Sequence record: NZ_CP137560.1
Reading direction: 5' to 3' (one strand)
Source: a plasmid
DNA length: 64,000 nucleotides
The notes beneath the pieces were generated by a model, which did no database searches, was not told the DNA's origin, and worked only from the letters and a program-made list of their open reading frames with translations. The translations under genes and the position numbers were made by a program. This document shows, piece by piece, positions 17,199 to 44,373 of this stretch (position 1 is the first letter of the stretch; every line of letters starts with the position of its first letter).

Positions 17199-19598
17199 TT
17201 ACACTTCTTGTGCAATAGGTACCCCTATACGATTGCTAATAGCTGTTTCTACAGCGTTGTATATGTCTGTCTCTTTGGTTTCTATTGAAACTATGAGAGA
17301 ATAGGGAACAGAATTGTCCACATTGTCCAGTTTCCTTTCTTTCCACCATCCTTGACCTGGAAATACTACTATCTTGTCCATTTCAGCCAAGTCTGCTGCA
17401 GTACATTCAATCCAGTCGGATTGTACAGTGCCTCTTTCTCGCTTTTGCTGTTTCACGTTCCATCTGGTTGCATCGTTTTGGGTGGTCTTTTCTCCTTCTT
17501 GCTTGTTCCTACGACACAGAAACTCTTCTTCTGTTTCTGTTGCTGTCTTTAGGTCAAAGTGCAATGTAGCAGATGGGTAGCGGTACTTGCTTGTCCTTCC
17601 GGCATAGCCAGGGGATGGCTTCACATAATATGATAATGTGATGCGGATTCTTACGTATTCGTCTCCCATATCTTCCAACAGTTCTTTTGGCCATGGCAAG
17701 TCGTAGTAGTGCATCTTGCCATATATGTTGCCACTGTCACCTTGTGTGTAGGGCTCCAGTTGATTCTCAAAAATATAAGTGGCGCATTTTTCGTTGCTAT
17801 ATACGGCTGCGTTCTCATCTGGAACGCCGTATCCACAGAGTGTCATACGCTCTTCAACATTATTTATACGCATCATTTCATCTGTCCATCGAGCAGAATG
17901 CACCATCAAGCCTCGGATGGAGAGCATTGACAGTTGCGGATTCTCCACTTTTATTTGTGCGGCAAGTCTTGCCGCCAATCCTGTAGCAGCACTTGTCGCA
18001 TTGAAAGGTTCCAATGGCTCTTCTTGCTCATTGCTGGTTGTTACAAGACTCAGGTCGCTATGTGAGGTTTCTCTGAGCAAGTCATGATAAGCTACATTTC
18101 CTCCTTCCATCACAATTTCTGGCTTATTGCGCTTCTCATGCCATGGGTATGAGCTACATGAATATGGCGATACACCACCTGGGGCTGCCAATGGCTTGAA
18201 ACTCTCATCGCCTACAAGAGTCTTTTCGGTATAGGCCCCTACAGTTAGGGCATTCCAAGCCTGTGCAGGGCTCTGCACTGCGTTTGCCTTACAGGATTCT
18301 ATATAGTTGTTATGGTCTACATCGGGTGTCTGTATGTTTCCTGCTGAAACCAAAACCAATCTGTCACATTGCCCCTGATGGTAGATGCTTTCATCAAGTG
18401 CTGCTGAACTGGAGGTGGCTATGCCGTTGTAGGCGCTTTCGTCTGTAATGGCCATGCATTGAATGGATGCACCCATATCCGAAGCTTTGCCGATGGCTTC
18501 TTCTATGACTGCTCCATAAAATTCCTTTGGTGTTTCATGCCCAGCCTCGTAAATTTTAACCGACGACAGTGCATGATGCACTGCTACTGGTGTTTCTCGT
18601 TGGTAGGCAATATTTGTCAAGTCACCAAGCAGGGCTAATCCTGCCATACCAGTACCGTGGTCTGTCTTGTCGGTTGCTTCCAGCACACCAATGGCTACAT
18701 CCATTCGCTCGTCTGGTAGTGCTGGCTTTAATAGTTCGTGTGCATTGTTCACTCCCGAATCCAATATGCCGACTATCACATCCGCATCTTGGTCGTAGGT
18801 GATTTCTCCTTTGATGAGTTCACTCCATTCTCTTTTCTCAGGGTTGCTGCTTGTCAGAATGGATGGCTTATGGTAGGGACGTATGCCTTCAATATATCCC
18901 AATGACAGTGGCAGGGTGCAGAGTTGTTGCTTGGTTGACTTAATCAACCATACATCAACACCATCAAAAAGCAAAGGCTCTGCCATCTTCTCTATACCCA
19001 GTTGATGCAAAGTGTTCTCTATGCGTTCTTGGCTGTTTTCTTTGCTATGGCTCATCCACAATTCGTAAATGTATGAGCCTTCTTCTGGTATTGTGTCAAA
19101 TTCTTCCGCTGACACGTAGAGTGTGCGAATGTCTGTTGCTTCTACACCATTGATAGGGGCGATCAACCTTTCATTGCATGGCTTTCCCTTTGCTGTATTC
19201 TTGGAAGAATAGTCGTCAACTTTATTTTTAAGCCAATCCTTCTTGTCCTTCTTTACATATACAGTAACGTCAACGTCATTTTCTTCTCCGTTGTCAGTTA
19301 CTTTCATGATGGTTGCTCCTTTTGGACTGTCTTGTTTGCCCAAAGAATCTGGTATGAAACTTTTGTCCATTTTCAAATCGACATAGATTCCGTTAGCCAC
19401 AGGCTGTCCTTGTTTTTCTCTTTCTTCCAAATGAGTAACAATCTGATTAACCACAGCTACGTATTGCTCCTTTACCATACTTGCTTGTGCAGCTCTGTCT
19501 TTTGAAGGAAGGGCATGACCGTCAAAGCCCTGTTTCTGTGGTGAAAAACCACGGGCTTCGGCTATATTGTTGCTTAAAAAGAAATGTTTCTTATGCAT
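17199..19598 (-). CDS. S8 (subtilisin-like) serine peptidase, no signal peptide
   Basis: Catalytic Asp (VGILDSGV), His (DHGTGMAG), oxyanion Asn (VSAGN) and Ser (NATSAATG); N-terminus MHKKHFFLSNNIAEARG is not hydrophobic. Confidence 0.85.
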   Translation of the reverse strand: MHKKHFFLSNNIAEARGFSPQKQGFDGHALPSKDRAAQASMVKEQYVAVVNQIVTHLEEREKQGQPVANGIYVDLKMDKSFIPDSLGKQDSPKGATIMKVTDNGEENDVDVTVYVKKDKKDWLKNKVDDYSSKNTAKGKPCNERLIAPINGVEATDIRTLYVSAEEFDTIPEEGSYIYELWMSHSKENSQERIENTLHQLGIEKMAEPLLFDGVDVWLIKSTKQQLCTLPLSLGYIEGIRPYHKPSILTSSNPEKREWSELIKGEITYDQDADVIVGILDSGVNNAHELLKPALPDERMDVAIGVLEATDKTDHGTGMAGLALLGDLTNIAYQRETPVAVHHALSSVKIYEAGHETPKEFYGAVIEEAIGKASDMGASIQCMAITDESAYNGIATSSSAALDESIYHQGQCDRLVLVSAGNIQTPDVDHNNYIESCKANAVQSPAQAWNALTVGAYTEKTLVGDESFKPLAAPGGVSPYSCSSYPWHEKRNKPEIVMEGGNVAYHDLLRETSHSDLSLVTTSNEQEEPLEPFNATSAATGLAARLAAQIKVENPQLSMLSIRGLMVHSARWTDEMMRINNVEERMTLCGYGVPDENAAVYSNEKCATYIFENQLEPYTQGDSGNIYGKMHYYDLPWPKELLEDMGDEYVRIRITLSYYVKPSPGYAGRTSKYRYPSATLHFDLKTATETEEEFLCRRNKQEGEKTTQNDATRWNVKQQKRERGTVQSDWIECTAADLAEMDKIVVFPGQGWWKERKLDNVDNSVPYSLIVSIETKETDIYNAVETAISNRIGVPIAQEV

Positions 19599-19611
19599 AA
19601 AGTTCCATTAT

Positions 19612-20571
19612 TTAGCAGGTTTGACGATTTAACTGCTGACGCATATTCACTATGGTCTGAACCAGTGGAAGGTCTATCTTCCTGTCATTAAGTAGGGATT
19701 CCTTAAATATGTCTGAACAAACCATCTTGATTTCGGCATGACTCATGCCATCAAACAAGGGCTCTACAGATGAGAAATCCAAGTCCTTTGCAGTATAGAG
19801 ATATTCACGAAGCAATGCTAATCGCTGTTCTCTATCTGGCAATTTATACTCTATGACATCATCAAAACGCCTAAACATGGCTTTATCTATGGATTCTATG
19901 CTATTGGTGGCAGCTATGATAAAACTGTCAGAATCATCTCGCTCCAACAGTTGTAGGAACGTATTGAGTATTCTTCGCTGTTCGCCAACTTCGTTGTCCA
20001 TTCCTCGCCGAGAACCGATGGCGTCAAATTCGTCAAACAGATATACTGCTGGTACTTCATTGATAAAATCAAAGATTCTACCTAGCTTCTGACCTGTTTC
20101 CCCCATGAACTTGGTCACAACTTTTTCAGTTCGCACAACAAAGAACGGCAAATTGAATTCTTTTGCAAGGGCACTGGCTGTCATCGTCTTTCCTGTTCCC
20201 GATGCTCCATACAATAGGAGCTTTCGGCGATTTGCCAATCCGTACTTACTTAGAGTTTCTTTCTTTAGATACTCTTTGATGACTCTGTCCAGTTTCTCTT
20301 TCAACTCCTGACTGAGTACCAGACTTGTCAAGTCATCATAGGTATCTACTTGCAGCAGCAAGTCATCTATATCCTTGTTTTTAGACACCAAACGTACCGT
20401 ACCCAAGGATGTTTTCTTTTGGTTGAGCAATTCTTGTATGGTACGTGCTACTATGGCATGACCACTCCTTGCCTCCACAGCGGAAATCTGCAGGGCAACC
20501 TTTCTGAATTGCGTATCATCGTTGTTCTGATGATTTCGTATCAGAGATAATATTTGATCAGCTGTAGCCAT
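19612..20571 (-). CDS. AAA-family ATPase (classic clade)
   Basis: Walker A GASGTGKT, Walker B YLFDEFD, arginine-finger region; 14 bp upstream of the S8 gene, so an operon. Confidence 0.85.
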   Translation of the reverse strand: MATADQILSLIRNHQNNDDTQFRKVALQISAVEARSGHAIVARTIQELLNQKKTSLGTVRLVSKNKDIDDLLLQVDTYDDLTSLVLSQELKEKLDRVIKEYLKKETLSKYGLANRRKLLLYGASGTGKTMTASALAKEFNLPFFVVRTEKVVTKFMGETGQKLGRIFDFINEVPAVYLFDEFDAIGSRRGMDNEVGEQRRILNTFLQLLERDDSDSFIIAATNSIESIDKAMFRRFDDVIEYKLPDREQRLALLREYLYTAKDLDFSSVEPLFDGMSHAEIKMVCSDIFKESLLNDRKIDLPLVQTIVNMRQQLNRQTC

Positions 20572-21070: not shown

Positions 21071-21646
21071 TCATTTCTTATTTCTAAGTTCATTAAACTG
21101 TGAGACATTGTAAAACTCCGTAAAGGCACCTCCCTTGCTTTGGTTTCCACAAGAATGAGCATGGCCAAAGACATGGAAACGAGGTTGAGAGCGATAAACC
21201 TCTAACAGTAGAGGAAGGCTTCCCCTACCCTCGTCAAGTATGCCTTCCGGTGGAATATGGGTAATCAAGAAGTCCATTTTGGTAGCAGATTGGACATTTT
21301 GCTCCTTACTTTGCAAGCTTCGCATGGATATATTCCCAAAACTTATCCCATCAAACTCAAAGGTGGAGTCATGAAGGAAAACTACTTTTTTAGGTAAAAG
21401 CGAAATTGTCTGCTCTAAGCAGTCTTCCAAGAACAGCTCATGATTACCTGCGACAAAAATATAAAGTTTGGCAGGATGGCTTAACAACCAGGAAAAGAAG
21501 TTCTCCATGCCATCCTTGCCAAAGTCAGACACTACATCGCCAGCACAAAGCAGGATGTCTGCTTCTTCAGGGATATGAAGCCGCTTGTGCATTCCATGAG
21601 AGTCAGAGAATGCAAAAATCCGATGTTCCTTATAGTTAAATAGCAT
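21071..21646 (-). CDS. Calcineurin-like metallophosphoesterase
   Basis: Motifs D-x-H (FSDSHG), GDxxD (AGDVVSD) and GNHE (AGNHELF). Confidence 0.8.
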   Translation of the reverse strand: MLFNYKEHRIFAFSDSHGMHKRLHIPEEADILLCAGDVVSDFGKDGMENFFSWLLSHPAKLYIFVAGNHELFLEDCLEQTISLLPKKVVFLHDSTFEFDGISFGNISMRSLQSKEQNVQSATKMDFLITHIPPEGILDEGRGSLPLLLEVYRSQPRFHVFGHAHSCGNQSKGGAFTEFYNVSQFNELRNKK

Positions 21647-21664
21647 TGATCTAATCTTATAAAG

Positions 21665-22198
21665 TTAATACTTCAATGGTGAATCTGGGCAGAATCTCTT
21701 CCGTCCGCATTTTTTGCATTGGCTTCCATTCCATACGAAGTCAAACTGGTTGATGGCTTGCTCCACAAAGGAAGGGGCATTGGTCAGGACACCGGCCTCG
21801 AAATTTCTGTTTCTCTCCCCCTTCATGCCGAGGCCTGCACCTGTGAGGTTGGCTGACCCAACATAGGCAGTCTCCAAGTCAAAGATGACCATCTTGAAAT
21901 GTACCCTTGGGCACAAGACTCTCTCCAATCGTTTGGCAAGAATCGAATAATCATCAAAGTCCTTGCGGAAATTAGGGCCAGGCTCCTTGGCATGGATTAA
22001 CCGAACCTCCACTCCACGCTCAATTAATCGAGAGATGACTTTGAGAAAGGGAACGGTCATGGAACTGCTTTTTACATACAAATCCTTGATGTCTGCAGTC
22101 CCTATCCAAAGATGATGTTTCACGTTCGCTATCTTGGCGATGACATCAGTATAGTGGGCACCATTGCTTATGTATTTATAATACGTAGTTTCTGACAT
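21665..22198 (-). CDS. Phospholipase-D-family (HKD) nuclease, Nuc-like, with C-terminal Cys cluster
   Basis: Perfect HKD motif HFKMVIFDLETAYVGSAN; 177 aa single-HKD architecture; C-terminal CKKCGRKRFC. Confidence 0.8.
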   Translation of the reverse strand: MSETTYYKYISNGAHYTDVIAKIANVKHHLWIGTADIKDLYVKSSSMTVPFLKVISRLIERGVEVRLIHAKEPGPNFRKDFDDYSILAKRLERVLCPRVHFKMVIFDLETAYVGSANLTGAGLGMKGERNRNFEAGVLTNAPSFVEQAINQFDFVWNGSQCKKCGRKRFCPDSPLKY

Positions 22199-22235
22199 TT
22201 TATTTCATTTTTTAAGTGATACGAAACCTGTTTCC

Positions 22236-22640
22236 TTATTTTTCCTGGAACACTTTATAAACATCAAACCATAAACCATGCAACATGTCAAGCAGTTTGA
22301 TTTTATCATCTGAAGATATGGGTAAGCCGGCAATGTCCTCTGGCTCGAAGCTGACGGATGAGACTTCATTTTTTAGCTCTAGTAAGAGCATATCCATTCG
22401 TTTCTCCAAGTATTGTTTCAACCAAGAGAGTTCGTCAAAATCACAAGTTGGAATTTTGATGTTTGATACACATTTTTGTTTCTTATCACCTGTCACTGAG
22501 TACAAATTCGCAAACCATATATCGCCAAAGCCAACACTCAAACTGAGTTCTATGCTATATGTCTTTCCCATATAGGAAAAAACAGTCTCACTTTGAGCTT
22601 CATCACCTGTGTCAAAGTCAACCCATTGATTCATCTTCAT
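22236..22640 (-). CDS. Hypothetical protein (operon partner of the PLD nuclease)
   Basis: 134-aa ORF, 38 bp upstream of the PLD gene, overlaps the next upstream ORF by 23 nt. Confidence 0.5.
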   Translation of the reverse strand: MKMNQWVDFDTGDEAQSETVFSYMGKTYSIELSLSVGFGDIWFANLYSVTGDKKQKCVSNIKIPTCDFDELSWLKQYLEKRMDMLLLELKNEVSSVSFEPEDIAGLPISSDDKIKLLDMLHGLWFDVYKVFQEK

Positions 22641-22938
22641 ATGCTTGAATGATTAACAATAGTTGTTCTTCACTTGTGCCCAATGTCTCCTGTACAAGAT
22701 CCACCTTTATTCTGTCCATAAATGATTGTGACACAGACATAAGTTGAACCAGTTCTCCCATCAGCAAAGGATATTTTACAGAGGTGACGATTCGCATAGA
22801 CACCTTATTATATTTTGCCCAATCCACCAGGGTGTATTGCCTAAAAGACCGGCAGATAGCCTCTGCCCTGCTTTCTCCTTTCATTGGAAAGGAATAGATA
22901 CGGCGTTTTACCGATATTCCGTGTTTAGTTTGTTCCAT
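22618..22938 (-). CDS. Hypothetical protein (first gene of the PLD/metallophosphoesterase operon)
   Basis: 106-aa ORF with a translationally coupled overlap onto the downstream gene. Confidence 0.45.
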   Translation of the reverse strand: MEQTKHGISVKRRIYSFPMKGESRAEAICRSFRQYTLVDWAKYNKVSMRIVTSVKYPLLMGELVQLMSVSQSFMDRIKVDLVQETLGTSEEQLLLIIQAYEDESMG

Positions 22939-23053
22939 TATTTCTTATTACTTTATATCTATGACACAAAGGTAGTCTGAAAATGGGAAAAATTACTGCA
23001 CACCTGAAAAATATTTTAGGTGTGACAACATTTTACACAGGAAATATTTACCT

Positions 23054-24622
23054 TTGCCACAAAATAAATATACAATGGAAAAGAAAGAGATAAAGCTACA
23101 AATGAAGGAACTCATCAAACTGATGAGTAAAGGAGTATGGGAAAAAGAGGACATCTTCTCCTTGACCTTGCTTAGCAGCATTGCTGGCGAAAGCATATTC
23201 TTGCTGGGGCCTCCCGGAACTGGCAAAAGTATGATTGCCAGAAGGCTCAAGGAAGTATTCGCCGAAAAGAAACAATTTGAATACTTGATGTCGCGTTTCT
23301 CTACCCCAGACGAGATCTTTGGACCAGTTTCCATATCCAAACTGAAAGACGAGGATACTTATGAAAGAAGAACTGAAGGGTATCTTCCATGGGCAAATGT
23401 GGTGTTTCTGGATGAAATCTGGAAAGCGGGACCTTCCATTCAAAATGCCTTGCTGACAGCCATCAATGAGAAAATCTACCAAAACGGAAATGAGACCATC
23501 AAGCTTCCTATGAAAGCACTCATTGCTGCATCCAATGAGTTACCTAAAGAGGATGAAGGGTTGGAAGCCCTTTGGGATAGATTCATATTACGAGTTGTCT
23601 CTAACCCCATAGCCAATGAACGTACATTCTACAAGATGCTAAAGGGGAAGAACAAGAGTAAAGTTGTCATTCCTGCCGAACTTCTCATAACAGACGAGCA
23701 ATACACACAAATCCTTGAAGAGGTGGAAGATATCGATATTCCTGACAATATACTCAAGGATATCACATTCATTCGCAAGAAGCTAAAAGAGACCGAGTCA
23801 CAGGATGAAGCCGCGAGTCCTCTAGACTATTATATATCAGACAGAAGATGGAAGAAAGCAGTACATCTGCTGCAAACATCGGCATTTCTAAATGGAAGAA
23901 AGGAGATAGACCTAACCGATCTTCCCATACTCTATCATGTGCTATGGAACAAGGTAGAGACCATTGAACCTGTCATGAAAATCGTTACAGAGTCATTATT
24001 CTGGAACATTGAGAATAAATGCTCAGTTGTGGAGAAAGAGTATGAAAAAGGGTTGAAAACGAAAGGCAATGCATTGGCAAACAGTAAAATAGCCAATATC
24101 AATTCTGAAGATTTCAACATCTATTTCTACTTCTATACCAAGCTTATGGGCACAAACTGGGGAGACACCTACTTCTTTCTCCAAGATTATGGATACCTGC
24201 TGATGGACATCGAGACGAAGGGTGTGCTCTATTTTGATAAGGATAAGAATGGATGGATTATCAGGAGAGTTCCTCAAGGTCCCTTCTCATCCAAGAAGTA
24301 TCCACAGCACCAAATCGTCAGTTTGAGAAGGGCGCAAGGTGGAATTATCGTAAATAATGCACTCTACATGATGGAACCATCAAAGATGGCTAGCAAGCCC
24401 ATTTTCCCTCCTACAGGGCAACAAAACTTGTTTTCTGAAGGAGACACACATCTCATTGAGGAGATGCAAAAAATAGGCAATGAACTTAACCAAAAGATGA
24501 GGTTGCTGGAAAAGGAAAATCTATTTGTGTCTTCAACTGACTTGAAGGTCATCCAAAAGTATGCCGACAACTTGCGAAAGAAATGTGAGGCGTTGGAAAT
24601 GAAGATAAAAACTAGCATATAA
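23054..24622 (+). CDS. MoxR/RavA-class AAA+ ATPase
   Basis: Walker A GPPGTGKS; MoxR-type Walker B/sensor block VVFLDEIWKAGPSIQNALLTAINEKIY. Confidence 0.85.
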   Translation: MPQNKYTMEKKEIKLQMKELIKLMSKGVWEKEDIFSLTLLSSIAGESIFLLGPPGTGKSMIARRLKEVFAEKKQFEYLMSRFSTPDEIFGPVSISKLKDEDTYERRTEGYLPWANVVFLDEIWKAGPSIQNALLTAINEKIYQNGNETIKLPMKALIAASNELPKEDEGLEALWDRFILRVVSNPIANERTFYKMLKGKNKSKVVIPAELLITDEQYTQILEEVEDIDIPDNILKDITFIRKKLKETESQDEAASPLDYYISDRRWKKAVHLLQTSAFLNGRKEIDLTDLPILYHVLWNKVETIEPVMKIVTESLFWNIENKCSVVEKEYEKGLKTKGNALANSKIANINSEDFNIYFYFYTKLMGTNWGDTYFFLQDYGYLLMDIETKGVLYFDKDKNGWIIRRVPQGPFSSKKYPQHQIVSLRRAQGGIIVNNALYMMEPSKMASKPIFPPTGQQNLFSEGDTHLIEEMQKIGNELNQKMRLLEKENLFVSSTDLKVIQKYADNLRKKCEALEMKIKTSI

Positions 24623-24630
24623 TTTTTAAT

Positions 24631-25977
24631 ATGGAAGATATAGACAAACGGATTGACGAATATTCTGGGCTTTTTGACCTCTACATCGAGGGGAAGCCCA
24701 TTCCTCCAGAGTACAAGGATGATCCTGTGGCAGGGTATATAGAAGAAATCTGCCAAGACTCAGGAAACAAGGAACTTTGCAGAAAAGAAGAGACATGGAA
24801 AGAAATTTTCAGAAAGGAAATTATTTCCATGTTGGAGGGTATATTGCCTGTCGTTTCCACAATAGAGAGGGAATATGAGGAAGAAATGAAGATATTATCC
24901 CACTTCTTTGCATCCAACATAGAGCAAAAACGCCTGGCATGGAACGGTATCGCCAAGCACTTGCACGATACTTTCGACTGCAGCATGTTCAATATACATG
25001 GATATATCCAGGAATTTGGAAAAAAACAGAAAACTACTGACGAAATTTTTGATGCCATGGAAGCTAATTGGAAAGAGGCTAGCAAGAAGAGGAAAGACCA
25101 GAAGATTGCGCAAGTACTTTCCAATAGTATGCAAAAAATTGAGCAAGAAATCATAACCTGTGGTGACATAGACTACAAGAAGGAACAGAAGAAGGCTCGT
25201 TTCTTCCACAAGTACCCTCAACTAAAGGAGATAGCCAAGAAGATGGGAAGGGAAAAAGAGAGAAGTGAAGAAATGGATGATGCCACCATGACTAGATACA
25301 TTCCTATATTACTCAAGCATTCCCATGACAGGCAAGACATAGATGGCGTATCCTTGGGAAATGACCTGGATAGCTTGCTTCCCACGGAGATTGCCATGAT
25401 GGACTCTCCCACCTTTTATGCAAAGTTTGCAAAAAGACAGCTGCAGCAATTTTCCTCAAAGGCTGCACAGAACAAGCGTGAAAAATCAACGGTTCATTAT
25501 AAGAAGCCTCGCCTTCTGCAAGGCCCCATGATTATTTGTATTGATACAAGTGGATCCATGAGTGGTAGACCTTTGGAAATCGCAAAGTCTCTATTGCAGC
25601 AACTCGCGGCTATAGCGAAAAAGGAAAAGAGAAGCTGTTTTCTCATCTCGTTCTCTATCAGAACAAAGACCTTGGACTTGGCAAGACCCAGTAATTATTA
25701 TAAGATAGATAAATTCTTCAAGGGCAGCTTTTCCGGGGGTACTAATGGGGAAAAAATGCTAATGGAAATTTTCAAGATGCTCGATTCTGAAAAATATTCC
25801 ATGGCCGATGCACTTATCATCAGCGACTTCTGTTTTCCTCTTCCTATAAAAAAAACAATGCAGAGACTGAAGGAAGAACAAGAAAAAGGAACTCGTCTCT
25901 ACGGACTTAATGTCCAAAGAAGAAATCCATACGCAAAGGACTACAAGGAAATTTTAGATAAGATGTGGAACTTATGA
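24631..25977 (+). CDS. VWA-domain protein (ViaA-like partner of the MoxR ATPase)
   Basis: C-terminal von Willebrand A domain with MIDAS D-x-S-x-S (ICIDTSGSMSG); 8 bp after the ATPase gene. Confidence 0.8.
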   Translation: MEDIDKRIDEYSGLFDLYIEGKPIPPEYKDDPVAGYIEEICQDSGNKELCRKEETWKEIFRKEIISMLEGILPVVSTIEREYEEEMKILSHFFASNIEQKRLAWNGIAKHLHDTFDCSMFNIHGYIQEFGKKQKTTDEIFDAMEANWKEASKKRKDQKIAQVLSNSMQKIEQEIITCGDIDYKKEQKKARFFHKYPQLKEIAKKMGREKERSEEMDDATMTRYIPILLKHSHDRQDIDGVSLGNDLDSLLPTEIAMMDSPTFYAKFAKRQLQQFSSKAAQNKREKSTVHYKKPRLLQGPMIICIDTSGSMSGRPLEIAKSLLQQLAAIAKKEKRSCFLISFSIRTKTLDLARPSNYYKIDKFFKGSFSGGTNGEKMLMEIFKMLDSEKYSMADALIISDFCFPLPIKKTMQRLKEEQEKGTRLYGLNVQRRNPYAKDYKEILDKMWNL

Positions 25978-26585
25978 CGACAAAATATACAATCAACCCT
26001 TCGCTCAGGTTATGCACATGGTGCCTTGTAGTAGGATGGCATGAGGTGAAAGACTCACTCTTGCAATCCGAAAGCATTTTTTCATGTGAAGGAAGAAGTA
26101 TCTATACCAAAGGAGACCGATGTATGATTATGGCGCAAGTAAACGAAAAGAGAATTGATTTTTATTACTGCCATGACACAAAATTCGACAACAGAAACAT
26201 TCAAAGTTGGCTAAGAAATATCATTAAGAATAAGATTCTAGACCTGGCAAACATTGAACTCCCCAAGAGATTGCATTATTGGGAAAAGGAGAAAAATCTA
26301 TATGCAAGACAAGTCATCATAAAAAAATTGAAGAGAAGGAACATATGGGGGCAATGTTCCATCTATAAACAGATTTTCTTGCCGCCAAAGATTGTGGTTT
26401 TCCCATTGGAATTGATTGACGAGATTATCCTACATGAAATGAGTCATCTCAAATTTATGCATCATAGGAAACAATTTTGGGAGTACTTTAGTTTCCTGCT
26501 AGGTAGAGATGCCAAACTATGCAAAATGAAGGAAAGTGTATTTTTCGCCAAATACGACGAAATGATAGAGTTCTTACTAAAATAA
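25965..26585 (+). CDS. DUF45/YgjP-like HExxH metal-dependent hydrolase
   Basis: HEMSHLKFMHHRKQFWEYF matches the YgjP/SprT-like H-E-x-x-H…H…FW signature; overlaps the VWA gene by 13 nt. Confidence 0.7.
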   Translation: MELMTTKYTINPSLRLCTWCLVVGWHEVKDSLLQSESIFSCEGRSIYTKGDRCMIMAQVNEKRIDFYYCHDTKFDNRNIQSWLRNIIKNKILDLANIELPKRLHYWEKEKNLYARQVIIKKLKRRNIWGQCSIYKQIFLPPKIVVFPLELIDEIILHEMSHLKFMHHRKQFWEYFSFLLGRDAKLCKMKESVFFAKYDEMIEFLLK

Positions 26586-26654
26586 TTGGCAACTGTGCAA
26601 CATTATTTCTCACTTTTTCATTATCTTTGTGCCAAAATTTAAAAGTTATAGAAT

Positions 26655-27560
26655 ATGGCTATCAATCAATTGAACAAATATGTCTGGCTCGTAGAGACCA
26701 TTCATCGAGCAAGGAACCGGGGTGGCATCACCTTGAAGGAGATTCAAAGCAGATGGTTGGATTCTGACATTAGTGAAGGAACGGAACTTTCTCGCCGTAC
26801 CTTCATCAATAATCTCCATGCCATCGAGGAACTGTTTGAGATTAATATCGAATGCGGCAGCGGATTCCGCTATCACATTGAGTATGGTGACTGTTTCGAG
26901 GAAGGAAGCGCCAGGAACTGGTTGCTCAACGCCTTCTCGCTCAATGCTATGGTAGGTAACAGCCGCAAGCTCAAGGAGAGGGTTCTCCTGGAGGACATGC
27001 CATCTGGCAGGAACTTCCTGGAGGATATCATCAAGGCGATGCGCGACAACCACGTCATATTCATCTCTTACTACAGTTACTATAACGAAAAGTATTATGA
27101 GTTTGACATCCATCCTTATTTCGTGAAGGCTTTCAAGAAACGTTGGTATGTGGTCGCATATAGTCCTGGCACGAACGATATCCGTTGCTATGCACTTGAC
27201 CGTATGGAGAATGTCATCATCTCCGAGGAAGTGTTCAAGATGCCTAAGAATCTGGAACCAGCTGAATACTTCAAGGATTGCTTTGGCATCATCAATAACA
27301 AGGATTCCGAAGTTCAAAAGGTAGTGCTAAAGGTTGATGCCTTCCAGAGTAACTACATACGCAATCTTCCTCTCCATGAGTCGCAAAAGGAAGCAGAGCG
27401 AACAGAAGAATACTCCATCTTTGAGTATCACTTGAAACCAGAATTTGATTTTGAACAGGAGATTTTCTCTAACATGGATACCGTGGAGGTGTTGGAACCT
27501 CTATGGCTAAGAGAAGAGGTGAAGGAAAGAATAAAAAATCTTGCAAGTAAGTATCTTTGA
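26655..27560 (+). CDS. WYL-domain transcriptional regulator (N-terminal HTH + WYL)
   Basis: WYL core KKRWYVVAYSPGTNDIRCYALDRM; 301 aa is a typical size. Confidence 0.8.
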   Translation: MAINQLNKYVWLVETIHRARNRGGITLKEIQSRWLDSDISEGTELSRRTFINNLHAIEELFEINIECGSGFRYHIEYGDCFEEGSARNWLLNAFSLNAMVGNSRKLKERVLLEDMPSGRNFLEDIIKAMRDNHVIFISYYSYYNEKYYEFDIHPYFVKAFKKRWYVVAYSPGTNDIRCYALDRMENVIISEEVFKMPKNLEPAEYFKDCFGIINNKDSEVQKVVLKVDAFQSNYIRNLPLHESQKEAERTEEYSIFEYHLKPEFDFEQEIFSNMDTVEVLEPLWLREEVKERIKNLASKYL

Positions 27561-27593: not shown

Positions 27594-28799
27594 CTAAATA
27601 TCCAGTCCCTTGACACAATCTATAGCTTCGTCAAACATTCTTGAGAAATCATTTAAAGTTTTACCGTTCAGCAAGTCTTTTATCCCAGAGGCATTATCCC
27701 AATATTGATTTCCATTAAAAATCTTCCAAATCCAATATTGGTCACTTTGGGAGGAATAATTCTTTTGAACATTTTCCCAGTCTTTTACATCTTCACGCTT
27801 GACTCCAGTTTTTGTGCGAAAGCCAAAGTATGGATCTCTCATTCCTCCGCAATTAAATCCAAATGCAAGTCTAAGATACTTCCAATGGTGATTATAAAAT
27901 GATGCTACTACATCCGATTTTTTCATCCAATTCTCTGTACAATCATCTCCCATAATCAACCCTTTGCTTTCTGCTAAATCCCTTAATTTAGGAATAAACA
28001 CTTCTTTTATAAATCTGTTTACAACAATATTTTTATTGTTTGCAATATCATAAATTGCATCTAAATTTTCTTCTTTACATAGAATATCTAATAGGTCCTT
28101 ATTATCTTCCATAACGTTATTTGTTAATATGTCAATAGTACTAATATATTGATTGATAGTTTCTCTCACGAGCGGAGTTCTTGAAGCCAACTCCACGCAA
28201 CGATCAAGCCATCCTCTAATATCACTCTTATAGGATAGGCAAACTATATCATTTTCCTTTAAGTCTTCACCCAAAGATTCTTTTGAAGGAGAGCAACCAT
28301 CCAATGTCAAGTAAATCAATACAAATGATTTTTCCGTATCGTCTCCTTTTTGTGACATTCCATAATTCCAGTATCTTAGCATCTGATGATATTGGTCAAC
28401 TGCATAGATTTTATTTTCTATGATAATACTATGCTTGCCATCAGTAAGATAAATATCTATTCTGCCGCCTTCACTATCAGTTTGCCTACCTATATATTTC
28501 TCTACTTCTACAGAAGCGATAGTCGTGTCTATTTCTAAACTATCTGCAGATATTGCAGGAAATGTTTTTTGCAGCATTTTCAAAAATGCCTCAAGGAATT
28601 TGCCTCTTTGTCCGTGACTTCCTTTTGGATTCAGCAGGTTTGCCAAAAACATAGAGTGTAGATGGACTTCATCTGACATGAAGCCCAAATCATTGAAAAT
28701 ATTATAATTTTCACCACGCTCAAACTTTTCTTTTCTTTGTTCTTTTATTTTTCGTGAAACTATTCGAACTTGGTTTAGAATATTGATTATATCATTCAT
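27594..28799 (-). CDS. PD-(D/E)xK nuclease-superfamily protein
   Basis: GRIDIYL…IIIENKIYA gives the D…E-x-K catalytic arrangement; last gene of the AAA-HAD operon. Confidence 0.55.
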   Translation of the reverse strand: MNDIINILNQVRIVSRKIKEQRKEKFERGENYNIFNDLGFMSDEVHLHSMFLANLLNPKGSHGQRGKFLEAFLKMLQKTFPAISADSLEIDTTIASVEVEKYIGRQTDSEGGRIDIYLTDGKHSIIIENKIYAVDQYHQMLRYWNYGMSQKGDDTEKSFVLIYLTLDGCSPSKESLGEDLKENDIVCLSYKSDIRGWLDRCVELASRTPLVRETINQYISTIDILTNNVMEDNKDLLDILCKEENLDAIYDIANNKNIVVNRFIKEVFIPKLRDLAESKGLIMGDDCTENWMKKSDVVASFYNHHWKYLRLAFGFNCGGMRDPYFGFRTKTGVKREDVKDWENVQKNYSSQSDQYWIWKIFNGNQYWDNASGIKDLLNGKTLNDFSRMFDEAIDCVKGLDI

Positions 28800-28863
28800 C
28801 GCATTATAAGCTATAATTGTTTACCTTAGAAACGAAATTCCATCTAATTTATTGTAGAAGTTA

Positions 28864-29505
28864 TTATTTTTGCCAATGAAAATGACTACGCAAACACTCT
28901 TTGTACATTAGGGCACGACGATTCATGTTGTTCATCTCTTTTTCTGGATACCAACAAAAATAAGCCATGAAAAGCATCACCATAAGGATATAGACCGCAA
29001 TAAATTTTAGGGCACCATAAAACCAACGTTTCATTTGACTGATCTCTTTGGTATTTAAAATTTGAATTGCTACTCTCACATCAGCCTTATCAAGACCTTT
29101 GCTACCTTCAACTTTCACCAGATGTTCTCGTTGAGAAAACAGAAAATCTTCCTCGTCATCAAGAATTATATAACGATAAGGCTCTTTGGCGTTCAATCTT
29201 AGCCATTCTGCAATCTCCAAGCCTTTACATCCATGTAAGCCTTGCCATTCCTCCACCCCATCTACATTGCTAAAGTTAACGGAATTGCAAGAAGGTGTCA
29301 AGCCTATGACTTCGCCTGGCATATGGTGTTCCTGCCACAACTTCTGTATGTACTTCATACCTTGCAATCGCCAAGTGGAAGAAATGATGATCTTGGCATC
29401 ACTTCTTTCCACCAAATGGAGCAAATTGGCTACAGCTTTCTTAGCAAATTTACCTTTTGGAGTATTGATTACTCCATCAAAATCTAAAAATATATACTTC
29501 TCCAT
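28864..29505 (-). CDS. HAD-superfamily phosphatase (HAD_SAK / polynucleotide-phosphatase-like) with C-terminal TM helix
   Basis: Motif I FLDFDGVINT (DxDGV); small cap-less HAD; 25 bp downstream of the AAA gene. Confidence 0.65.
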   Translation of the reverse strand: MEKYIFLDFDGVINTPKGKFAKKAVANLLHLVERSDAKIIISSTWRLQGMKYIQKLWQEHHMPGEVIGLTPSCNSVNFSNVDGVEEWQGLHGCKGLEIAEWLRLNAKEPYRYIILDDEEDFLFSQREHLVKVEGSKGLDKADVRVAIQILNTKEISQMKRWFYGALKFIAVYILMVMLFMAYFCWYPEKEMNNMNRRALMYKECLRSHFHWQK

Positions 29506-29529
29506 ACCTTTTTTGTTATATATCAGCCG

Positions 29530-31203
29530 TTAGAATCCAATTTTTCTCTTGGTACGACTCCCTTCCAGTCTTTCATTTTCACAAAACTCAACAAGGGATT
29601 TGGCCATGTTCTCTGGCTGGCCATGCAATATCGACTGGATGGTAAAATGACGGGCGATGTTCTCTATTTCACCACCGCTGAAATCATACTTGCCCGCCAG
29701 GTAACTGGCATCGGCATCATTCAAAGGCGGAATCATCGCTTGCCAAATCTGAGTACGGCAATTCAAGTCTGGCTTCTCAAACTGTATCTTATAGAGGAAA
29801 CGGCGCTCGAAGGCCTTGTCCATGTTCTCTGCGAGGTTGGTCGTGGCAATGAGGATGCCATCCAACTGTTCTATCTCCTGAAGGATGATATTCTGAATAC
29901 TGTTTTCCATCTTCTCAACGGCTCTTTCCGCCCCCACCTGACGCTTGCCGATGATGGCATCAGCCTCGTTGAAAAGCAAGATGGGTGCCTTGGCTAATTG
30001 TTTCACCTTCTTCTTATAATCATCGAAGATGCCCTTGATATTCTTTTCGCTCTCGCCTACCCACATGCTCTTAACCTCTGAAACGTTCACCTGAATCAAG
30101 TCACGGCCAGTCTTCTTGGCTATCTGAAGCACAGTCTCTGTCTTTCCTGTACCAGGCGCACCATAGAAAAGGCAGGCAAAGCCGCTTCTGAAGTTGGTTT
30201 CTTTCAATCGATTTTTGATACGCTGGAAATGCTCCTCATCCAAGAGGGAAGTTAACTCTTCCACTTGCCTTTGTTCCTTGCTATTGTAGAATAGTTGCTT
30301 GGGGCTGATGTCCTCAAAGGATAGCATGCCACCCTTCGGGCGAGAACCACGCATGGATGATAGGTTGAGTTCCGAGAAAAGCTGTTTCTTGGCATCATCC
30401 GTAATTTTGAACGACTCTCTATCCACAAAGCCATCATCATTGGTATATTCAATGAACTTCTCCACAAAAAACAAGTGATCACCTTGACTCAAGCCTCGCT
30501 TTTCGCATCGCCATTCTGCATCGCCTTCTTTATATATAAATTCCAAGTCGTGGTATCGGATGTCATCATCACCATTGACAACAAAGAGTGTACAAAACAA
30601 GACGAAAAGCGGGAAGTACAGATCATCCGCATCTACATCGTAGGAAGCCATCGCCTTGACAAAAGCCAACTTTTCGTTCTTGGCTACCAATGCCCTCAAT
30701 TTCCTTCTCAGCACTTGTTTGTCAATCTTTCTACGGCGACATTTCGTAAACAACTCATCGAACTTGTCAAATAGTTCTCTGGCTGTAAGTTCCTCCACAT
30801 CCATAGGATTATAACGCTCATTATGTTGGAACGCCTCCATCACCTCCATTGGGATGGTATAATAGAAACCTTCATCCCTATTGCGGCAGATATATTCCTT
30901 GTCAACAAGCTCTTGGATTTCATTGGCATATCGAAGCAAGCTAAGGATGCGGCAGCCCAAGAAATCCGTAAAGTCCGAGAACTGGATGTGACTGTCATCG
31001 CATCTGTCGGCAAACAAGGCCATGATGGCACTGGCACGCTTGGATATGTCCAGTTTATCGGAGACAAATCCAAGATATGAATCAGTCTCCTCATAGAACT
31101 TCTCACCCAGAGAAGAATTCTTTGCCTTATCTACGATTATTTCGAATGCTTGGAGCAAGTCCATCTGCTCCATATCTTTTTTACACGACGTTTGCATAAC
31201 CAT
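29530..31203 (-). CDS. AAA-family ATPase with about 330-aa N-terminal domain of unknown function
   Basis: Walker A GAPGTGKT, Walker B ILLFNEAD, sensor-1 and arginine-finger region in the C-terminal 230 aa. Confidence 0.85.
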   Translation of the reverse strand: MVMQTSCKKDMEQMDLLQAFEIIVDKAKNSSLGEKFYEETDSYLGFVSDKLDISKRASAIMALFADRCDDSHIQFSDFTDFLGCRILSLLRYANEIQELVDKEYICRNRDEGFYYTIPMEVMEAFQHNERYNPMDVEELTARELFDKFDELFTKCRRRKIDKQVLRRKLRALVAKNEKLAFVKAMASYDVDADDLYFPLFVLFCTLFVVNGDDDIRYHDLEFIYKEGDAEWRCEKRGLSQGDHLFFVEKFIEYTNDDGFVDRESFKITDDAKKQLFSELNLSSMRGSRPKGGMLSFEDISPKQLFYNSKEQRQVEELTSLLDEEHFQRIKNRLKETNFRSGFACLFYGAPGTGKTETVLQIAKKTGRDLIQVNVSEVKSMWVGESEKNIKGIFDDYKKKVKQLAKAPILLFNEADAIIGKRQVGAERAVEKMENSIQNIILQEIEQLDGILIATTNLAENMDKAFERRFLYKIQFEKPDLNCRTQIWQAMIPPLNDADASYLAGKYDFSGGEIENIARHFTIQSILHGQPENMAKSLVEFCENERLEGSRTKRKIGF

Positions 31204-33624: not shown

Positions 33625-35883
33625 ATGAACGATGAGAATTTATTGAAGGTTGCTTTGAGATACAAGGCTTTGTATCTTGATATTGAAAAAGAGGATATAG
33701 ACATGTCCTCAAAGATGACACCTGCTGTTTATTCCCTCACTGAACGCCTGAAAGAAAATGGCTTTTGTTTGAGCGAAGAACTTCTCCATGCACTAGACGA
33801 AGTACCTGTGGCGAAATTAGCAGATATAGTCTCTATCATAGAGGATGTGATGGGAGTTGGACTCAATTGGTCGTCTCTTGTCAAAGGATGGGACATGCCT
33901 ACAGGCGAGGGAGTCGCTGACCACTTTATAACCTGGGTTGCCAACATCATCAAGGGTGAACTGAATATCAAGGGAACTACCCTACCTTGTGGTCACTTGA
34001 TTCCAGATGGTACATTTCCACTGGAAAGATACAATGGATGCCCTTTCTGTGGAACACCGTTCAAAACAACAAATTATGTGTACAAGGGACAGGGAAGCAA
34101 GCTCAAGGAACTTAGGTTATTGAACAGAGAAGATTTGAAGGGAATATTTCTTTCGTTACTTACCTCTCCTACTCCTCTTGATATAACCCAAAAAGATTCA
34201 CTCAATCTGCTTTTGAATTGTTTTGAGGTTCCAGAAGGTACAGAAATTGGCATGAAGGAGACCATGATGCTGGTCATCAAACATTGGGTGTCAACAGGTC
34301 AAGCTGATAGAGCCATGGACTATTTCAAGACTCCAACAGACATCTTGAGATACCTATGGTTTGAGAAGACAGGGCACGTTCAGATCATCAAACCTTCAAC
34401 TCTTATGAATAATGCTCGAAGACTGGGAGCTCACATGAACTTTGTTTGTGACAAAGCCTTGACTTATCAAGAGCAGATGAAGCAGCAGCTCATGCTCAAG
34501 TATAGTCGTAAAAATTGCAAGACGGTGAGCAAATGGATAAACAATCTCCCGCTTTCGGCAATTAAGATGGCTGAGGACATGAACTCCAAGCGTGGTATGT
34601 GGGTAAGATTCATACGTGCCTTGCGTCTGGCGGAGTACGCCAAGAGAAAAGGTTATGAGAAGTTAGCTGATGTCATGGACATTTTCTATAAACAAAACTA
34701 CACCACGTGGCAGGGAAACTTAGATCAGGCTTCGAACAACAACCAGGCAGAAAAGGTTTTAGGCATGCTCAAGGAAAGACCAGGTTCATTTGCCAGATGT
34801 CTCTTTGCTACTATGTTGAGATTCGGTAGCTTAAGAACCTTGAAAGCATTTGGAGAGATTGCCGATGAGCTGCCAGCCAGACTACTCGTCTCCCTTGGCA
34901 ATGCAGCAGAAGGATATTTTGACATCGACTCCATCAGGTCAATCAAGACTATTACTGGAATCCAGAAGATCATCCCACACAACAAATTGCTTGCTCTATA
35001 CAGTAAGGTAGAACGAGAGAAAATGATTGAGGATGTGAATGGTATGTACAAGGACTCTATGTTCAGGCGTTTCAAGGCACAGGACACAGAGAGCAAGACC
35101 ATCTACATCGCCCCTGAGTTATATGACATACCTATTAGCGTCGGCGACCGATCAACAACCATACAGGATACCAGTTGTGCACTGATGGGAACTCGCTTCC
35201 ATATGGAAGGAGATGCGGTAAGGTTATTCTTGCAATGGGGAAAGGGGCTGCATGCCCAGCATTTGGACATGGACTTGAGCTGTCGCATCTCTTACGAGGA
35301 TAAGATAGAGGAATGTGCCTATTACAATCTTACCTGCACAGGTGCCAAGCATTCTGGTGACATACGTTCTATCCCTGAGATGGTGGGTACAGCAGAGTAC
35401 ATTGAACTGTCACTGCCAGAACTGGAGGCTGCAGAAGCTAAGTATGCCATCTTCACATGCAACGCCTACTCCTGTGGATCCTTATCTCCAAATCTTGTAG
35501 TTGGTTGGATGAACTCCGCCAACAAGATGAAAATATCAGAGAAAGATGGAGTAGCTTATGACCCTTCCTGTGTTCAGCACATGGTGAGGGTTGCCGACGA
35601 CAATCTCTCCAAAGGATTGGTATTCGGGGTTCTGGACATTGCCAAACGAGAAATCATCTGGTTGGAAATGCCTATCGCAGGACAGACATTGCGTTCGGCT
35701 AGAAGTAAGGATATAGAGGCTTTACTCATAAAATTACAAAGGAAACTCAAGATTGGTGAGCTTCTTAAGATGAAAGCCGAAGCACAGAGTCAGAAAATAG
35801 TAGGTTCTGCAGAACAGGCAGATGAAAGCTATACCCATGAGTGGGCATTTAATCCGGCAGAAGTAAGTAAGCTGTTATATTGA
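33625..35883 (+). CDS. Large orphan protein (752 aa) with a C-H-C-C zinc-ribbon-like motif
   Basis: Long clean ORF 99 bp downstream of the tRNA-like gene; CGHLIPDGTFPLERYNGCPFCG; no other recognisable catalytic motif. Confidence 0.55.
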   Translation: MNDENLLKVALRYKALYLDIEKEDIDMSSKMTPAVYSLTERLKENGFCLSEELLHALDEVPVAKLADIVSIIEDVMGVGLNWSSLVKGWDMPTGEGVADHFITWVANIIKGELNIKGTTLPCGHLIPDGTFPLERYNGCPFCGTPFKTTNYVYKGQGSKLKELRLLNREDLKGIFLSLLTSPTPLDITQKDSLNLLLNCFEVPEGTEIGMKETMMLVIKHWVSTGQADRAMDYFKTPTDILRYLWFEKTGHVQIIKPSTLMNNARRLGAHMNFVCDKALTYQEQMKQQLMLKYSRKNCKTVSKWINNLPLSAIKMAEDMNSKRGMWVRFIRALRLAEYAKRKGYEKLADVMDIFYKQNYTTWQGNLDQASNNNQAEKVLGMLKERPGSFARCLFATMLRFGSLRTLKAFGEIADELPARLLVSLGNAAEGYFDIDSIRSIKTITGIQKIIPHNKLLALYSKVEREKMIEDVNGMYKDSMFRRFKAQDTESKTIYIAPELYDIPISVGDRSTTIQDTSCALMGTRFHMEGDAVRLFLQWGKGLHAQHLDMDLSCRISYEDKIEECAYYNLTCTGAKHSGDIRSIPEMVGTAEYIELSLPELEAAEAKYAIFTCNAYSCGSLSPNLVVGWMNSANKMKISEKDGVAYDPSCVQHMVRVADDNLSKGLVFGVLDIAKREIIWLEMPIAGQTLRSARSKDIEALLIKLQRKLKIGELLKMKAEAQSQKIVGSAEQADESYTHEWAFNPAEVSKLLY

Positions 35884-43005: not shown

Positions 43006-44373
43006 ATGAAAGAAGAATGGACTCCCATAGATTTCGGACAGACTGAGGATACCACCAAGAACATCATCAAGGTCATTGGTGTTGGCGGTGGTGGCTGCAA
43101 TGCTGTCAAGAACATGTACGCTGAGGGTATTGTCAATGTGAGCTTTGCCGTCTGCAACACGGATAGCCAGTCGCTGTCCAAGTCGCCTGTGCCAGTAAAG
43201 ATTATGCTGGGCAAGAGTGGCTTGGGAGCTGGTGCCAATCCAGAGGTGGGTAGAAGCGAGGCACAGAATACTCAGGAAGACATCAAACGGCTCTTGAATG
43301 ACGGCACCAAGATGGTTTTCGTCACGGCGGGTATGGGTGGTGGCACTGGAACTGGTGCTGCACCAGTTATCGCGGGTATAGCCAAGGGGATGGGCATTCT
43401 AACGGTAGGCATCATCACCATTCCTTTCTACTTTGAAAAAAGGAAAAAAATCGTAAAGGCTCTTCAAGGTGTGGAAGAGATGCGCAAGAACGTGGATGCT
43501 TTACTCATCGTCAACAACGAACGTCTTTGTGATGTATATGCAGACTCAGAAATTACCGTAAAGGATGCTTTCAAACTGGCAGACAAGGTATTGAGTGATG
43601 CCACTAAAAGTATATCGGAGCTAATTACTGTAGAGGGAACCATCAATCTTGACTTCCGTGACATCGAGACTACCATCAAAAGCGGTGGTGGAGCTATCAT
43701 GGCCATGGGCAGAGCCAGTGGTGAAAGCAGAGTTCAGAATGCCATCAAGAATGCCTTGGATTCTCCCCTACTCTATGGCAGCGACATCGGCAATGCCCAG
43801 CGCATCCTCTTCAATATTTACACTTCCAGCAAGCACCCTATCTTTGTTAGAGAAATGCGAGAGATTGATGCTTTCTTTGATGAACTCAACCCGGATATTA
43901 AGGTAATTTGGGGCCTTTCTGACGACGATAGTCTGGATGAAGATGCCAAAGTTACCATCCTGGCAACCGGTCTGAACAATGAGATAGCGGAAGAAGTACC
44001 GGAAAACTCCACTATATCCAAGGATGAGGAAGATTACCAAAGAATCATAGACAAACTCTATCATCCAATAAGAGACAGTTTCAAAGCACGAAAAGATAAA
44101 ACTATTCAGAAAGAAAATATAGATAACAATCATTTGGACAATACTAAGAAAGAGTCTAAAGATGAAGATTTTAAGGCTGAAGCTGTTGAAGAAATGACTA
44201 AGGTTTCAATAAAAGACAATTCACACCCAACAAATGTCTCTGAAGAAACTTCTGAAAAACCATCAGAAACAAAGCCAAAACCATTAACTATGAAAGGGAG
44301 AATCAAAAATGGTCTTATAAAAATAGCAAAAGACTTGGAAATCATCACATATGATGAAGAAAACTACAAATAG
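43006..44373 (+). CDS. FtsZ-like tubulin-family GTPase with a K/E/D-rich C-terminal tail
   Basis: [34 protein letters not shown] (tubulin signature); located in a plasmid-like replication/partition context, not a dcw cluster. Confidence 0.85.

Follow-up and report, generated by a model that had tools for sequence, protein, structure and literature searches.

Gene organization of the locus

The stretch analysed here (the window) comprises 64,000 nucleotides (nt) of a plasmid, sequence record NZ_CP137560.1, and our subject is a cassette of three adjoining genes (the triad) that encode a MoxR-class ATPase, a VWA protein and a DUF45 metallopeptidase, followed by a gene for a WYL-domain protein. 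The four open reading frames (ORFs) were confirmed on the + strand in the order MoxR, VWA, DUF45 and WYL, with only the start codons refined. The domain assignments of a preliminary description of this DNA, namely MoxR, VWA with an intact metal ion-dependent adhesion site (MIDAS), DUF45 with an HExxH motif, and WYL, proved correct by Pfam, NCBIfam and alignments, and the RefSeq annotation of the cassette genes is generic. The features of the locus are as follows.

23017..26578, + strand: the three-gene cassette as a presence/absence polymorphism, from blastn synteny with a Segatella copri DSM 18205 replicon
23048..23055, + strand: putative -7 promoter box TACCTTTG of the Bacteroides type (consensus TAnnTTTG), 20 nt 5' of the MoxR ATG, read from the sequence
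23075..24622, + strand: RavA-like MoxR-class AAA+ ATPase of 515 amino acids (aa), from Pfam, NCBIfam and PDB matches
24631..25977, + strand: ViaA-like VWA adaptor, 448 aa, from the NCBIfam ViaA match, the MIDAS alignment and an AlphaFold2 (AF2) model
25974..26585, + strand: YgjP/DUF45 zinc metallopeptidase, 203 aa, whose start overlaps the VWA stop (ATGA)
26621..26628, + strand: putative -7 promoter box TATCTTTG of the WYL gene, read from the sequence
26655..27560, + strand: WYL-WCX protein, a putative ligand-sensing regulator outside the cassette, from Pfam and PADLOC

The mechanically called MoxR ORF (23054-24622) opens at TTG 23054; ATG 23075 is the likelier start, because homologues align only from residue ~12-16 and because the -7 box lies at 23048-23055. 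Comparable boxes were present within 130 nt 5' of the gene in 21 of 64 MoxR homologues, most often 31-40 nt before the start, and their agreement with the Bacteroides consensus suggests that they act as promoters. The MoxR stop and the VWA start are 8 bp apart, the DUF45 gene may begin at GTG 25965 or, more likely, at ATG 25974, and 69 nt separate the DUF45 stop from the WYL start.

Conservation of the triad

A one-genome-per-species profile scan (185,579 species genomes) returned 507 VWA loci, overwhelmingly from Bacteroidales, and the best 80 of these 507 were analysed by tblastn, ORF clustering and counting. MoxR lay immediately 5' of VWA in 64 of the 65 loci with room for it, with an overlap of -4 nt in 42. 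Directly 3' of VWA, on the same strand, a small DUF45 gene was found in 47 of 77 loci, and the overlaps between the two genes (-13, -4, -16 or -19 nt) suggest translational coupling. The tblastn searches added a DUF45 gene in two further loci (L003 and L018) and decayed DUF45 remnants in another two (L060 and L068); members of the DUF45 cluster of ~580 aa were DUF262-type proteins, an artefact of single-linkage clustering. Dozens of divergent loci, with proteins of 35-50% identity, repeat this gene order, which places it far above chance. In the VWA tree, DUF45-positive loci were spread across most clades with scattered absences, and the deepest branches were without DUF45.

The linkage also held in the reciprocal direction. 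In a DUF45-anchored test on metagenome contigs, all full-length proteins of at least 35% identity with available upstream sequence had VWA and MoxR upstream, and relatives of 34% identity or less matched only the catalytic half and had no VWA or MoxR upstream. This DUF45 subfamily is therefore dedicated to the MoxR-VWA pair. The preliminary description had raised the metalloprotease as a possible third component and proposed a search for the triad in other genomes; the triad was indeed found there, with the DUF45 gene co-conserved with the pair.

Several side observations concern the distribution of these genes. Contig L002 (JALFCJ010000205.1), labelled as a Spirochaetales metagenome-assembled genome, is 3.9 kb long and 99% identical to the cassette, and probably reflects wrong binning of a Segatella contig, not a lateral transfer. 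A second, shorter paralogous MoxR-VWA pair occurs in five loci (L029, L114, L119, L140 and L169), either a few kb from the triad or beside WYL; its VWA protein matches residues 196-431 only, at ~30% identity, and its MoxR protein is ~50% identical over the core. A viral origin found no support, as 2.9 million viral contigs contained seven weak or partial relatives, none of them with a DUF45 gene.

Features of the three cassette proteins

The ATPase matched the Pfam families bpMoxR (PF20030; 7e-54, 182.5 bits against a cut-off of 27), AAA_5 (1.5e-26) and AAA_lid_8 (2.3e-23). It also matched the NCBIfam RavA profile (5e-101), over profile positions 10-296 of 498 only, and the Escherichia coli RavA structure PDB 3nbx (1.8e-81 over residues 19-308). 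Walker A (G45-S52, GPPGTGKS) and Walker B (D113/E114) are both conserved in the ATPase family. Conservation values of 0.8-0.94 across the core drop to 0.25-0.55 past residue 300, so that the C-terminal ~210 aa are family-specific and variable; Pfam gave no domain past residue 311, and these C-terminal residues matched nothing known. PADLOC returned weak, generic AAA matches only for this protein (RtcR, DolB, TRIP13).

The VWA protein consists of a helical N-domain (~1-206), two linkers modelled with low confidence (211-240 and 275-290) and, at the C-terminus, a VWA domain. Its MIDAS is intact: an 18-sequence alignment shows no variation at D305, S307, S309 and D399 and almost none at T371. It matched NCBIfam ViaA (1.2e-43, residues 181-428) and, weakly, Pfam VWA_2 and VWA_CoxE. 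The fold in its AF2 model (predicted local distance difference test, pLDDT, 78) closes with the VWA domain at residue 448, and the modelled secondary structure holds no domain after it, so there is no beta-propeller. Foldseek with this model retrieved VWA domains only and was uninformative for the N-domain. An exhaustive HMMER search with residues 1-290 identified 113 cluster representatives among 1.84 billion, in which longer proteins (480-530 aa) matched only residues ~176-285; residues ~1-175 are therefore family-specific, and the middle segment is common to the longer proteins. The relatives of the whole VWA protein in a large protein database number 659, and nearly all are ~445 aa long.

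The DUF45 protein matched Pfam YgjP-like (PF01863; 2.2e-19). Residues H154, E155, H158, H164, F168 and W169, which include the HExxH...H site, were invariant in alignments of 21 and 40 sequences, and the subfamily has a conserved N-terminus of its own, INPxxRL. The structure model (pLDDT 92) resembles minigluzincins, Wss1/SprT and Spartan. With an HExxH motif, a third histidine downstream and a zincin fold, the protein is a zincin, and it could serve as the effector of the cassette. PADLOC gave no matches at all for the VWA and DUF45 proteins.

Repeated loss of the cassette and independence of the WYL gene

The cassette varies between closely related replicons. On the 167-kb replicon of S. copri DSM 18205 the WYL gene adjoins the small gene h106 and segment 23017-26578 is missing; in the blastn comparison (L001), the flanks 22715-23016 and 26579-27541 abut. 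Searching with the cassette by blastn revealed at least six different deletion alleles at this one site in Segatella contigs, with deleted segments 23078-26328, 23111-26523, 23065-26450, 23018-26375 (with an insert), 23013-26649 and 23017-26578. One Segatella contig fuses a MoxR fragment to the DUF45 3' end, and several deletion alleles leave a DUF45 3' remnant. These alleles and remnants imply that the cassette is ancestral at the site and has been lost repeatedly. The losses spare both the WYL gene and a divergent unit of h106, h134, phospholipase D (PLD) and metallophosphatase genes, and the cassette itself is found on plasmid-like replicons.

The preliminary description had joined the WYL gene to the other three in a single operon, repressed by its own WYL product from the promoter region 22939-23053. 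The common strand and the short gap of 69 nt are in keeping with that proposal, as are the lack of any terminator-like site found between DUF45 and WYL, and the occurrence of a WYL/exonuclease cluster within 10 kb in 30 of 80 loci (so labelled because its 'WYL162' ORFs are RNase T-like exonucleases). In addition, a motif of 11-12 nt, TGTG(A)CAACATT, is common to the promoters of MoxR and WYL, at a distance of 15-16 nt from the -7 box in each. We nevertheless consider the four-gene operon very unlikely. The WYL gene has its own -7 box at 26621-26628, as do 20 of 26 WYL homologues, nearly all of them 21-40 nt before the start. The gene and its promoter persist in every cassette-deleted allele, and between families its position (upstream or downstream of the cassette) and its strand differ. 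As for the resemblance of the two promoters, which would have indicated a shared WYL operator or paralogous promoters, similarity in MAFFT was not above controls: the local alignment score was 17 against a mean of 15.1 (standard deviation 2.5) for shuffled sequences, and was reached by 478 of 2000 shuffles and by 125 of 659 genomic controls. The motif TGTGCAACAT is likewise not enriched in the window (7 matches versus 6.1 expected).

By these features of sequence and synteny, we regard the WYL gene as a separate transcription unit and a neighbour of the cassette. The protein matched Pfam WYL (4.7e-16) and WCX (3.5e-9) and the PADLOC WYL model (2.5e-30). It has the WYL and WCX domains of BrxR/CapW-type regulators of defence loci, and its residues 1-115, where an N-terminal winged helix would be expected in such regulators, matched no helix-turn-helix family in Pfam at E <= 0.01. 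Its variable position suits a regulator acting on the island as a whole better than a member of the operon, and the protein may co-regulate the island. In cassette-less strains, the h106-PLD unit diverges from WYL, which would be a classic regulator-target layout.

Defence-island context and neighbouring genes

The cassette lies within a defence island at 15-37 kb of the window, which contains an Iet pair, PDC-S10, a Nuc-like PLD, PDC-S26, and an IetA-like AAA protein with HAD_SAK_2. At other loci, recurrent cargo appears in shuffled order: PLD, DUF262 pairs, IetA-like AAA, HAD_SAK, PDC-S10, PDC-S26, RtcB, WYL and RNase T-like exonuclease. At least one recurrent defence-type neighbour was present in 38 of the 59 loci of at least 12 kb. 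The defence setting suggested in the preliminary description is thus found at this locus and at roughly two in three of the longer ones, rather than a setting of metabolic neighbours only.

The most frequent neighbour of the cassette is the PLD gene, which in the window is the following feature.

21665..22198, - strand: Nuc-like single-HKD PLD nuclease (Pfam PLDc_2, 1.1e-13), a frequent, separable neighbour of the cassette

In 21 of 77 loci it is one of the next three genes downstream with the same orientation, and 33 of 80 loci have it at some position; its sequence shows high conservation. The possibility that PLD is an obligatory fourth component was rejected: the PLD protein of the window recurs identically in contigs with the triad (L176 and L177) and intact in contigs without it (L174, L175, L178 and L179), all of which keep WYL, and L082 holds a frameshifted copy of the cassette without PLD. 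The HKD motif is intact and followed by a C-terminal cysteine cluster, and the identical protein was found in 6,483 blocks of an assembly collection.

The other genes of the island also differ among related replicons. The Iet-type pair (17199-20571, - strand) encodes an IetS subtilase of 799 aa (PADLOC 2e-36) and an IetA AAA ATPase of 319 aa (9.7e-66), and is present in one syntenic Segatella contig (L176) and replaced in two others (L174 and L177). Next to it, the divergent unit (21071-22938, - strand) holds h106, h134, the Nuc-like PLD and a PDC-S10 metallophosphatase (1e-39) with gaps of 18-37 nt. On the other side of the cassette, 27594-31203 (- strand) encodes a PDC-S26 protein of the PD-(D/E)XK type (6e-99), then HAD_SAK_2 (213 aa) and an IetA-like AAA protein (557 aa). 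The S. copri DSM 18205 replicon keeps the HAD and AAA pair and has two ATP-binding proteins in place of PDC-S26, so this position looks like a swappable slot. Further inside the island, a 752-aa protein (33625-35883, + strand) had a weak match to Prok-RING_4 (3.8e-5, below cut-off) and none in PADLOC.

Elsewhere in the window, a 1317-aa protein (53042-56995, - strand) has Schlafen/AlbA_2 as its sole detected domain, and a separate SprT-like metallopeptidase of 142 aa is encoded at 58838-59266 (- strand). Replicon-type genes at 1-807, 43006-44373, 45487-46173, 48767-50035 and 57223-58740, comprising two ParA genes, an FtsZ-like tubulin-family gene, a Rep3-type initiator and DnaB, suggest that the window belongs to a plasmid or secondary replicon of a Segatella/Prevotella strain. 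The GC content falls to 28-33% at 46-52 kb, around the Rep gene, and insertion sequence elements are present in the window. On a plasmid of Prevotella sp. E2-28 (L173), the triad is flanked by a ZapA gene and a dnaE-like gene.

Loci of the Muribaculaceae type (L017, L022, L024, L029, L036, L068 and L071) have a long co-directional array with short gaps, in the order RtcB, WYL, RNase T-like exonuclease, c7 (~240 aa), c17 (~75 aa, hydrophobic), MoxR, VWA, DUF45, (c29) and PLD, and this array may be a larger composite system. The upstream gene c7 was considered as a possible FtsZ-like gene, for which Pfam gave no support.

The co-directional run from RtcB to PLD bears on a different explanation of the cassette, a response to RNA damage in which VWA and MoxR would remodel damaged ribonucleoprotein (compare the vWA protein Ro60 and midasin) alongside the RtcB ligase, the RNase T-like exonuclease and HAD_SAK phosphoesterases, with the WYL sensor controlling the set. 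Among the 59 longer loci, 14 have RtcB, 7 have HAD_SAK and 28 have the WYL/exonuclease cluster, and both HAD_SAK_2 and an RNase T-like exonuclease are encoded near the cassette in the window. RtcB, however, is absent from the window and from most loci, and which of these neighbours occur, and in what order, changes from locus to locus in the manner of island cargo. Linkage of the DUF45 subfamily is to MoxR-VWA alone and does not extend to RtcB or WYL, and no RNA-binding domain was detected in the three cassette proteins. We consider an RNA-repair function quite improbable.

Relationship to RavA-ViaA

The cassette pair shares with RavA-ViaA the AAA+ core with AAA_lid_8, the ViaA middle region and MIDAS-bearing VWA domain, and the order of ATPase then VWA. 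Its scores, however, fall below the NCBIfam equivalog cut-offs NF010054 and NF008230 (339 versus 681 bits and 150 versus 500, respectively), the C-terminal half of RavA (triple-helix, LARA) is not matched in the cassette ATPase, VWA residues 1-175 have no relatives outside their own family, and a peptidase gene is coupled to the pair. RavA-ViaA is a core enterobacterial operon, whereas the cassette is strain-variable and island-linked, and no genes for the RavA-ViaA partners (the LdcI cage, fumarate reductase, Nuo) were linked to it in the loci examined. We therefore do not assign the cassette pair full membership of RavA-ViaA; the pair is nearer to RavA and ViaA than to any of the four systems of Kaur et al. 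2020 discussed below.

This strong similarity might indicate a housekeeping-type chaperone-protease, in which the RavA/ViaA-like pair would mature, cofactor-load or quality-control a host complex and DUF45 would process the client, with no role in conflict. The characterised MoxR-VWA pairs are all maturation or insertion chaperones (PMC7159879), the cassette holds no toxic effector domain, and part of the sampled loci would also be consistent with this explanation (those without recognisable defence neighbours, and three without DUF45 beside housekeeping-type genes, detailed below). Against it stands the variation at a single site, where Segatella contigs that are otherwise nearly identical either have or lack the cassette and at least six deletion alleles arose independently, as does its residence on plasmid-like replicons and in islands with Iet, PDC-S10, PDC-S26 and DUF262 pairs. 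Just 507 loci were recovered from the 185,579 species genomes, no conserved candidate client gene is linked to the cassette, and a LARA-type C-terminus as in RavA was undetected. On balance, a housekeeping function appears unlikely.

Comparison with ternary conflict systems

Kaur et al. 2020 (PMC7159879) described MoxR-vWA pairs as threshold-setting cores of conflict systems, and distinguished four ternary types (VMAP, iSTAND, FtsH and beta-propeller). The same paper summarises what is established for MoxR-VWA pairs in general, namely that a client peptide is captured through the MIDAS and ATP-driven remodelling follows. The cassette likewise has adjoining MoxR and vWA genes with a conserved third component, and its MoxR protein passes the bpMoxR threshold. 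The long helical N-terminal region of its vWA protein is a feature of 62% of vWA proteins of the beta-propeller type (PMC7159879), and the coupling of a MoxR-vWA pair to a metallopeptidase is shared with the FtsH type. It differs in that its third component, a 203-aa YgjP/DUF45 peptidase, is none of the four described, and in that VMAP, iSTAND, FtsH and TPR/propeller proteins are all missing; the third component of the beta-propeller system, with its variable N-terminus, transmembrane segment, TPR and propeller, has no counterpart here. The P-loop of the cassette ATPase is the canonical GPPGTGKS and not GxxxTAKS, and the hosts are unicellular gut Bacteroidales. We therefore do not place the cassette in the beta-propeller system, which gave the bpMoxR family its name: no propeller follows its VWA domain, its third component is another, and its P-loop is of the canonical form. 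The cassette thus fits the general grammar of MoxR-vWA ternary systems, with a third component outside the four described.

For jumbo phages, Iyer et al. 2021 (PMC7824862) described a MoxR-vWA pair, proposed to act in virion assembly, whose vWA protein carries a fused metallopeptidase at its N-terminus. The two modules have in common a MoxR ATPase, a vWA co-chaperone and a metallopeptidase, and they differ in that the phage peptidase is fused and phage-encoded, whereas that of the cassette is a separate downstream gene on bacterial replicons. Three IMG/VR contigs of 208-218 kb (L170-L172) encode a distant MoxR with a GPPGTAKS P-loop and a vWA protein of 578 aa, with HAD_SAK-like genes nearby. 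The jumbo-size viral contig L170 was considered as a source of a Rosetta-stone fusion of vWA and peptidase, and rejected, since its vWA protein contains no HExxH.

In the literature searched on MoxR, RavA, ViaA or DUF45 together with defence, no description of the triad was found. Our best reading is that the triad is a previously undescribed form of the MoxR-vWA ternary conflict systems, with a peptidase as its third component.

Proposed function and implications

Four features of the triad are shown by the sequences: its genes are linked in both directions, each of its proteins keeps an intact catalytic motif, it has been lost more than once, and it lies in an island setting. It is best read as a self-contained, translationally coupled accessory cassette of three genes, strain-variable in gut Bacteroidales and located most often in defence islands, and we propose, with about even confidence, that it acts in defence. 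The ATPase would form a hexamer, as known MoxR proteins do. The MIDAS of the VWA protein would capture a client peptide, with specificity set by the family-specific helical N-domain, and ATP-driven remodelling would pass the client to the peptidase, or release and activate the peptidase. The output would be proteolysis of an invader protein or a host target, limiting phages or other mobile elements. Such a mechanism would resemble that of Cdc48/p97 with Wss1 or SPRTN, and that of the MoxR-vWA-FtsH ternary systems.

Several points weigh against a defence function, which is plausible from context. The peptidase is not obligatory, as 30 of 77 loci have no adjacent small DUF45 gene. A check of the genes directly around three DUF45-less loci (L008, L070 and L078), of which two branch close to the base of the VWA tree, showed housekeeping-type genes in each case. 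Seventeen of the 59 longer loci (~29%) have no recurrent defence-type neighbours, and PADLOC recognised almost nothing among 101 neighbouring proteins of these loci. PADLOC-DB v2.0.0 has no system-specific model that matches any of the three cassette proteins, and the cassette has no recognisable toxic effector or hypervariable domain, unlike the described ternary systems. To our knowledge, RavA and ViaA, the closest characterised homologues, are not immune proteins.

A more specific form of the defence hypothesis, which we put forward tentatively and hold to be possible rather than probable, is that the triad is a stand-alone immune system of gut Bacteroidales, in which the AAA+-VWA machine would recognise an invader protein, such as one made by a phage, or a relaxase or terminal protein bound to DNA, and license the Wss1/SprT-like peptidase. 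In eukaryotic DNA-protein crosslink repair, Cdc48/p97 pairs with the metalloproteases Wss1 or SPRTN, and the triad would be a prokaryotic counterpart of these Cdc48-Wss1/SPRTN pairs. Cdc48/p97 belongs to another AAA+ clade, and in the cassette the VWA adaptor replaces ubiquitin/SUMO adaptors; the comparison is offered as an analogy only, with no claim of homology of the pairing, and no DNA-binding domain was detected in the cassette proteins. If true, a stand-alone immune system of this kind would give the RavA-ViaA class a concrete, proteolysis-coupled function.

Should the cassette protect its hosts from phages or plasmids, it would represent a new protease-coupled branch of MoxR-vWA conflict systems, carried by bacteria that rank among the most abundant in human and animal guts (Segatella, Prevotella, Muribaculaceae and Bacteroides), and its presence or absence from strain to strain could shape phage susceptibility. 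The natural deletion alleles of Segatella could serve as near-isogenic controls. The cassette would also offer a three-gene handle on RavA/ViaA-type machines, in which client capture would be followed by proteolysis, and thereby on a class whose E. coli pair has long been enigmatic in its role.

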